A stretch of 64,000 bases of DNA, from assembly GCA_964016885.1 (NCBI GenBank), contig OZ024759.1:15500001-15564000 (forward strand). Reading direction: 5' to 3'. Below, one piece after another: positions 30,989 through 31,223 of this stretch. The stretch comes from Eledone cirrhosa. Its lineage: Eukaryota. The notes beneath the pieces are model-generated. The model was not told where the DNA came from. It worked only from the letters and a program-made list of their open reading frames with translations, and searched no databases. Within the stretch, counting starts at the first letter, position 1. Each line of letters begins with the position of its first letter. The translations under genes and the position numbers were made by a program.

Positions 30989-31113
30989 CTATTCTATGTT
31001 GAAACTATATATATATATATATATATACATACGTTATTCCGGGTTGAATCGGAGGTAACCACAGTAAGTAAGGTACTCAATACATTGCAGAGTATACAAG
31101 TTTTAATATAGAT

Positions 31114-31166
31114 GAGATTCTACAGGACTAGAACTGTTTCATTCTTTAGAAATCATCAGGAATCTC
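31114..31166 (-). ncRNA. Type I hammerhead ribozyme motif (family A)
   Basis: GAGAUUC-CUGAUGA-…-GAAACAG…CUGUA-GAAUCUC, 7-bp stem I. Confidence 0.8.
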
Positions 31167-31169
31167 AGT

Positions 31170-31218
31170 GATTCCTGAAGATTTCTAAAGAATGAAACAG
31201 TTCTAGTCCTGTAGAATC
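31170..31218 (+). ncRNA. Type I hammerhead ribozyme motif (family A)
   Basis: GAUUC-CUGAAGA-…-GAAACAG…CUGUA-GAAUC; only the free N7 position differs from the other arm. Confidence 0.8.
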
Positions 31219-31223
31219 TCATG

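Follow-up and report, generated by a model that had tools for sequence, protein, structure and literature searches.

A hammerhead-bearing pLTR stub in Eledone cirrhosa and what its junctions suggest about the insertion of Penelope-like elements

Layout of the locus

The window analysed here is the whole stretch of 64,000 nucleotides from E. cirrhosa, and all positions without a locus handle refer to it. The locus at 31032..31222 lies in a (TA)n repeat, which occupies 31007..31031 on the left side and is found again 3' of 31222; such flanks are present at nearly all copies. It consists of two unequal arms that mirror each other. In the numbering used throughout, +1 denotes the base with which stem I begins (31165, minus strand), the predicted cut falls after +45 and the tail ends at +133/+134. 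The long arm (31032..31165, minus strand) corresponds to the first ~134 nt of the predicted transcript of the parent element described below, namely a hammerhead and its 3' tail. It runs from +1 at 31165 to +133/+134 at 31033/31032, where the parent continues into its 5' UTR and ORF.

The hammerhead of the long arm (31115..31165, minus strand) is intact and of type I, with CUGAUGA at 31159 and a predicted cut after 31121. Its stem I is formed by AGAUUC/GAAUCU and its stem II by UUC/GAA below a U-U pair; the GAAA motif is present, and stem III (ACAG/CUGU) closes a loop with the palindrome CUAG. Counting the junction bases, stem I of the minus strand at 31114 reaches 7-8 bp, while the native stem has 6 bp. 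Two hairpins were found in the tail, and both are candidate binding and start signals for the reverse transcriptase (RT). The first (31074..31094, minus strand) has a 5-bp stem that is weak alone (folding z of -0.3 in this copy and -1.9 in the 17146 copy) and is a candidate protein-binding signal; a coral Hydra element shown in the supplement of PMC8557442 carries a similar-looking one at its 3' end. The second (31038..31053, minus strand) adjoins the fixed insertion end and is a candidate RT start signal. Its stem is UCCG/CGGA here and CCCG/CGGG in the other subfamily, so that the pairing is kept between subfamilies.

Directly after +1 there is a junction insert (31166..31169, plus strand) of four non-native bases, the first of them C, which varies from copy to copy. 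The short inverted arm (31170..31222, plus strand) extends from +2 to 9 nt beyond the cut and lacks the tail. Its core is intact and differs by a private change at position 7, a variable site of the core; its predicted cut lies after 31213. A full core on both strands at 31114-31218 had already been proposed in the first-pass annotation, and a hammerhead descriptor agrees with it, locating intact cores at 31159 (minus) and 31175 (plus). The plus-strand cut position, the stem III pairing with its CUAG loop and the alternative loops of stem II (UAAA or UCCG) are likewise as described there, the cut position being a prediction from the sequence.

Other copies in the window

Homologous copies had been reported at six places, and all six were matched by blast. 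The 24-nt core has 8 matches in the window versus none in 100 shuffles, and the hammerhead descriptor finds four intact cores (minus strand at 31159, 20035 and 17273; plus strand at 31175) versus none in 50 simulated windows. The description of the family as back-to-back hammerheads across six loci does not hold, since intact cores on both strands occur at 31032 only and three of the six loci are decayed. The stub at 19909..20066 (minus strand, cut after 19997) has an intact minus core, and its inverted arm breaks off within stem II. The palindromic stub at 17146..17327 (minus strand) belongs to a second subfamily; its minus core is intact, with the cut after 17235, and its plus core is decayed. 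At 61316..61510 (plus strand), reported as 61325, lies an old palindromic stub with the tail on the plus arm and both cores decayed. The two remaining places, reported as 30941 and 40772, are single, decayed copies on the plus strand. The former (30637..31006) is an older, separate and tail-less copy with a broken stem III that keeps its native upstream pseudo-LTR (pLTR), including a TATA-like box at 30909-30916 and +1 at 30940, and the latter (40776..40901) is a stub with a tail and no inverted arm.

Regarding coding capacity, no ORF of a Penelope-like element (PLE) was noticed in the ORF listing of the window, which holds mostly microsatellite frames and RT fragments of other retroelements. 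Open frames with RT motifs at 14440-15900 and 23903-25800 (both minus strand) belong to another, LINE-like family. Moreover, a second palindromic repeat family was observed in (TA)n at 17030-17075, 43382-43436, 55290-55390 and 61561-61700; its 15-nt motif matches 7 times, with no match in shuffles. This family carries a hammerhead half of the form GAAA-stem-GUC, a palindromic GAGCUC loop and a tail motif resembling that of the Penelope stub family, and it is likely another PLE pLTR with a variant core.

Conservation and folding of the hammerhead

The 31032 family displays the features of a type I hammerhead: the CUGANGA, GAAA and NUH core elements, stems I to III, and ends within stem I. Among 21 distinct native copies, 95.6% of the stem cells are paired, compared with 29-47% in controls with slid partners. 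The first pair of stem II (10.1-11.1), for which a purine-pyrimidine pair is usual, is U-U in all 21; this oddity had been flagged as a caveat in the first-pass annotation and, being invariant in native copies, is a trait of the family.

Compensatory change in stem I was also part of that annotation. Two compensatory pairs do separate the subfamilies (AGAUUC/GAAUCU to GGCUUU/GAAGCC); the form GGUUUU/GAAGCC at 17229, taken there as typical of a subfamily, is a decayed form of the native GGCUUU/GAAGCC. Two-sided change affects 2 of 13 pairs, a value reached in 166 of 500 shuffles, and both cases come from a single subfamily split. Judging from these alignments, the covariation of stem I is probably real but traces to that one split.

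An Rfam scan gave no match at the gathering score, and the monomer does not fold better than shuffles (z from 0.8 to -1.1). Two monomers co-fold into a double-hammerhead topology through the CUAG loop at -27.0 kcal/mol, and stem III alone has computed energies of -1.4 kcal/mol as a hairpin and -12.8 kcal/mol as a homodimer. Given the conserved core and three stems and the double-hammerhead co-fold, the pLTR hammerhead likely acts as a dimer, a mode of action that has been proposed for PLE ribozymes in the literature.

The parent element

The parent was reached by following the sequence beyond the tail into a tandem array (L054) and from there into copies that continue into an ORF. Two copies elsewhere in the genome (L113 and L114) present the complete arrangement of pLTR, ORF and pLTR. 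The ATG is at +182, the ORF has 712 aa, the 3' UTR is long and rich in microsatellites, and the second pLTR follows after about 5 kb. The protein carries RWR at position 38, DKT at 116, YRDDG, CxCx5C at 566, a GIY-YIG-like motif, CxxC at 666 and CxH at 694, and the CX2-5CxxC motif is absent from its 712 aa. Thus, a single ORF with RT and C-terminal GIY-YIG motifs lies between ribozyme-holding pLTRs, as in EN+ PLEs, and the insertion forms found are also those of EN+ PLEs: 5'-truncated, partial-tandem, inverted, and with the tail at one end.

The hallmarks of the Hydra clade given in section 11 of PMC8557442 are an RWK-like motif, DKT, the CxCx5C linker, CxxC and CxH around the endonuclease core, (TA)n targets and hammerheads. 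The parent protein is also alike, block by block and as judged by eye, to Hydra proteins in the supplement of that paper. On the basis of the clade motifs, the (TA)n targets and this likeness, the parent is assigned to the Hydra-clade PLEs. A Pfam search of the parent ORF returned a single weak hit, GIY-YIG, below the cut-off (E 0.005), and no match to an RT family; homologues number 1,420 among 7,994 candidates. The locus at 31032..31222 is almost certainly a PLE pLTR stub, an identity that the first-pass annotation had missed.

Other observations were made on the parent copies and their derivatives. The 3' UTR comprises about 2.6-2.9 kb of mixed (TA)/(TG) microsatellite (L113:4510-7150 and L114:4760-7610), so that such repeats may be spread by the element as well as serve as its targets. 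In the 181-nt 5' UTR (L114:2438-2620) there are upstream AUGs together with possible splice signals, namely GU donors, a stretch resembling a branch point and, shortly beyond the tail, a UUUUAG acceptor. Some families of EN+ PLEs have a spliceosomal intron in the 5' UTR, and an intron spanning the region of RT start is possible from this sequence. In addition, the array at L054/L065 (G000:C9:23835400-23836600) is a retrozyme-like derivative of the Hydra-clade parent, with a 195-nt unit made of ribozyme, tail and 60 nt of 5' UTR, and it is folded back on itself.

Abundance

The genome has 3.0 Gb and is rich in (TA)n. Exact patterns match genome-wide 8,726 times for the 5' half of the ribozyme, 6,719 times for the young tail and 3,245 times for the second subfamily, and palindromes whose centre lies no more than 24 nt ahead of the core number at least 2,088. 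In a sample picked by position, made up of 47 stretches of 10 kb (10 of them flanking the window), 16 clusters were found that represent about 14 insertions. This density outside the window (about 14 insertions in 470 kb, roughly 30 per Mb) suggests that copies are on the order of 100,000. Many of these insertions could form long RNA hairpins if read through.

The palindrome arises at each insertion

The 40 best-scoring copies are 97-100% alike across the whole palindrome. Among copies otherwise 97-100% identical, the junctions and the ends of the short arm vary copy by copy. A comparison of 84 arm pairs, in a set enriched for one variant and with edge positions included, found subfamily variants common to both arms at 56 of 58 sites, and all 53 other differences on one arm only. 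Many of the centres are near-perfect hairpins with a loop of 1-3 nt.

The first-pass annotation had also suggested that a transcript from either direction would carry a usable ribozyme. This does not agree with the data. The palindromic stub has no upstream promoter region or TATA box. In read-through from either side the antisense arm is transcribed ahead of the ribozyme and pairs with it, and the long hairpin has -88 kcal/mol versus about -18 kcal/mol for the best fold that keeps the hammerhead pairs. Considering junctions made copy by copy, a hairpin that outweighs the ribozyme fold and a stub devoid of a promoter, the inverted second core is a by-product of insertion, and the back-to-back form does not represent a bidirectional ribozyme passed on by inheritance.

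Positions at which the arms stop

Thirty consecutive tail matches comprised 2 internal pLTRs and 28 terminal copies. Among the latter, 13 stop at -1..+7, 5 at +8..+52 and 2 in the tail, and 8 read through; an inverted arm is present at the stop in 17. The 30 best tail matches, a less neutral set that includes the 31032 copy, gave 16, 6 and 1 in the same classes (-1..+7, +8..+52 and tail), together with 6 read-throughs among 29. No arm passes -1 in the 36 palindromes of the two sets, and within the consecutive sample the interval from -2 to about -35 contains no long-arm stop.

Upstream of the ribozyme, 74 non-inverted contexts have a TATA-like box, most of these contexts being near-identical copies. 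In 49 of them the box starts 36 nt ahead of the core and 30 ahead of +1. The distance between box and core is the same in both subfamilies, whose spacers are homologous. Another 27 contexts without the box are largely array junctions and truncated copies.

Where the base after +1 is not the native G, it is C in 1,715 cases genome-wide versus A or T in 377, although part of these C are ambiguous and may belong to the partner arm. At junctions with longer inserts, C was found in 94 of the first 100 listed among 576 matches. C leads likewise in the second subfamily (17/27), where most of the C in the 12 loci read can be assigned to the partner arm's own C, so this subfamily gives no independent support for the extra base. 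In L1, an extra G derived from the cap is described as marking full-length insertions (PMC11702581). Self-priming of the cDNA on its own stem I was discarded as the source of the C, which is no copy of the 3' strand of stem I: in the variant for which such copying predicts CTT, 0 of 45 matches have it. It should be noted that one locus (L143:9380-9539) does look like a cDNA folded back on its own stem I, forming an inverted repeat with the ribozyme core as its loop.

Near the cut site, departures from the native sequence number 231 after +47, 191 after +46 and 156 after +45, versus 2,092 after +1, counts that come from patterns of different length and in which about half of the cut-site departures are point changes. 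Extrapolation from 30, 15 and 15 loci places the true ends at about 100 at +46, about 100 at +45 and about 30 at +47. With departures near the cut site far below those after +1, cleaved RNA was rejected as the main template; the counts leave room for a minor class that may derive from it. A splice acceptor at the CAG ahead of stem I was also set aside as the cause of the boundary, given that the junctions read showed no donor or upstream exon.

When the 5' extent of the arms is compared in the 36 palindromes, the short arm goes beyond the long one in 21 (22 on a re-reading of one row), the two are equal in 4, and the short arm falls behind in 11; its surplus amounts to up to 45 nt in copies that are otherwise young. 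In 82 of 105 rows, a count that includes repeated loci, the other end of the short arm lies 15 or 22 nt beyond the cut, at points where the element itself resembles the TA repeat. Some junctions make use of the GATTC microhomology of stem I.

Proposed mechanism and alternatives

The transcript of the parent would begin with the first base of stem I, at a distance of 30 nt from the TATA box upstream. One uncleaved, capped sense RNA would then be copied twice, once from each cut DNA end, with RT starting internally at about +134 for one end and at about +60 to +67 for the other. An internal start is required by the position of the tail end, which lies inside the 5' UTR of the parent. The RT would exhaust the template at the cap and copy the cap as C, and the two cDNA ends would be joined by microhomology or short inserts. 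Long copies would result if RT began within the transcript's 3' pLTR, and the ribozyme is predicted to act on parent transcripts, as a dimer or with the help of a protein, and not in palindromic stubs. Copying the same stretch of RNA a second time would need strand displacement, a point that counts against the scheme.

This scheme has precedents in Poseidon: according to PMC11167929, its protein cuts and extends both target strands in vitro, initiates reverse transcription at two internal sites that delimit the tail, and takes mostly uncleaved RNA as template. The arm stops at +1, the non-native C, the few ends at the cut site and the longer short arms together favour two cDNAs over antisense self-priming. 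That 31032..31222 is a short insertion, into a (TA)n repeat, of the hammerhead-bearing pLTR of a Hydra-clade Penelope-like retrotransposon, with its mirror form made from a capped RNA by two cDNAs, is in our judgement probable. For the mirror form, an origin from two cDNAs on a capped template is rather likely. We lean slightly towards the full reading of the junctions as a record of Penelope 'strong-stop', with a start at stem I, two internal RT starts on an uncleaved capped RNA, a copied cap and cDNAs joined head to head.

The main rival to two cDNAs keeps the same element and the same capped start, and makes the second arm from the first: the first cDNA, having arrived at the 5' end of the RNA, turns and copies itself, is joined to the TA repeat by microhomology, and has its junction blurred by later deletions at the centre. 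Such a fold-back would account for arms that mirror each other's subfamily variants, for the near-perfect hairpins at many centres and for short arms ending at TA-repeat-like sequence. Nevertheless, a self-copy cannot contain sequence that the first arm does not have, so the short arms that are longer at the 5' side in 21-22 of 36 palindromes could not be given by simple self-copying. Deletions at the centre after insertion could also make the short arm seem longer, and fold-back is retained as an unlikely alternative. A different proposal places the cause of the stop at stem I in the structure of the RNA or cDNA or in stem I microhomology, or supposes that an antisense template primes itself. 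The GATTC junctions are consistent with it, and the head-to-head palindromes of rotifer PLEs were read as antisense-template self-priming in PMC3846280. It accounts neither for the non-native C that either arm shows at +1, nor for a TATA box at -30, nor for the empty interval between -2 and about -35, and we consider it improbable.

Finally, the 190-nt palindrome could be an independent non-autonomous element, similar to a MITE or a retrozyme and maintained for a ribozyme that works on either strand. The close likeness of the 40 best-scoring copies would fit this, as would the 195-nt tandem array with the same ribozyme at L054/L065. It is largely refuted by the heterogeneity of the junctions and short-arm ends, and private changes are never mirrored, the stub lacks a promoter and the hairpin blocks the ribozyme fold in both directions, which together make it very improbable. 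A fixed palindromic master or MITE was rejected on the variety of junctions and because the copies have neither fixed ends nor a common internal junction.

If two cDNAs on a capped sense RNA are indeed the source of the palindromes, this would explain the inverted pLTR and the one-sided tail of PLEs in general. It would also rule out an antisense template for the Hydra-clade stub family and place the job of the ribozyme outside the production of the template.

Comparison with known systems

pLTR hammerheads, opposite-strand pairs, inverted 5'-truncated or head-to-head PLE copies and one-sided tails have all been published before, so the object itself is of a known kind and its value is that of a natural record of the PLE insertion mechanism. 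The origin of head-to-head insertions, the sense of the template and the role of the hammerhead are treated as open in PMC3846280, PMC8557442 and PMC11167929. These questions become testable in the present family, which is young, retains intact ORFs and offers thousands of junctions and a start site predicted to the exact base. The literature surveyed, of incomplete coverage, yielded no report of a PLE start site at stem I or of a cap base at PLE junctions.

The element resembles the Hydra PLEs described in PMC8557442 (Craig et al. 2021) in its ORF with a C-terminal GIY-YIG, the clade motifs, the (TA)n targets, the pLTR hammerhead and an inverted copy that is 5'-truncated, the tail being present on a single end. 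Its hammerhead differs in sequence from that of Hydra-1_Obim in the same source, and the Eledone element is a separate family. Its unit of about 5 kb with a microsatellite-rich 3' UTR and its tail of about 65-70 nt also exceed the sizes given there for Hydra elements (<3 kb and 30-40 nt, respectively). With the PLE hammerheads described in PMC4209133 it shares the type I topology, a weak and palindromic stem III of a kind that suits dimers, the abundance of solo copies and opposite-strand pairs 100-700 bp apart. In contrast, stem II has 3 bp with a conserved U-U here, where a conserved G10.1-C11.1 is described in that work, and stem III has 4 bp and an 8-nt loop, unlike in those hammerheads.

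The in vitro study of Poseidon from Anolis carolinensis (Frangione et al. 2024, PMC11167929) describes an internal RT start downstream of the ribozyme, a tail bounded by two start sites, AT-rich targets, extension of both strands and an uncleaved RNA template, the same features as in the scheme proposed here. Poseidon belongs to another clade, and its ORF starts inside the ribozyme, whereas here it starts at +182. As in the rotifer Penelope elements of PMC3846280 (Arkhipova et al. 2013), there is an inverted pLTR, an optional tail and palindromes at the junctions; TATA and initiator-like motifs are described in the pLTR there, and a TATA-like box is found here. That paper proposes self-priming of an antisense template and leaves the question open, while the present junctions point to a capped sense template.

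Animal non-LTR retrozymes, as presented in PMC7229834 and bioRxiv 10.64898/2026.07.22.740005, also have a type I hammerhead related to those of PLE pLTRs, and the tandem array of the same ribozyme at L054/L065 is similar to them. Unlike them, the locus in the window is a head-to-head stub that can be traced directly to an autonomous parent. A retrozyme was rejected as its identity, since head-to-tail monomers were found only in the derivative array at L054/L065. Another tandem unit was observed at L094.
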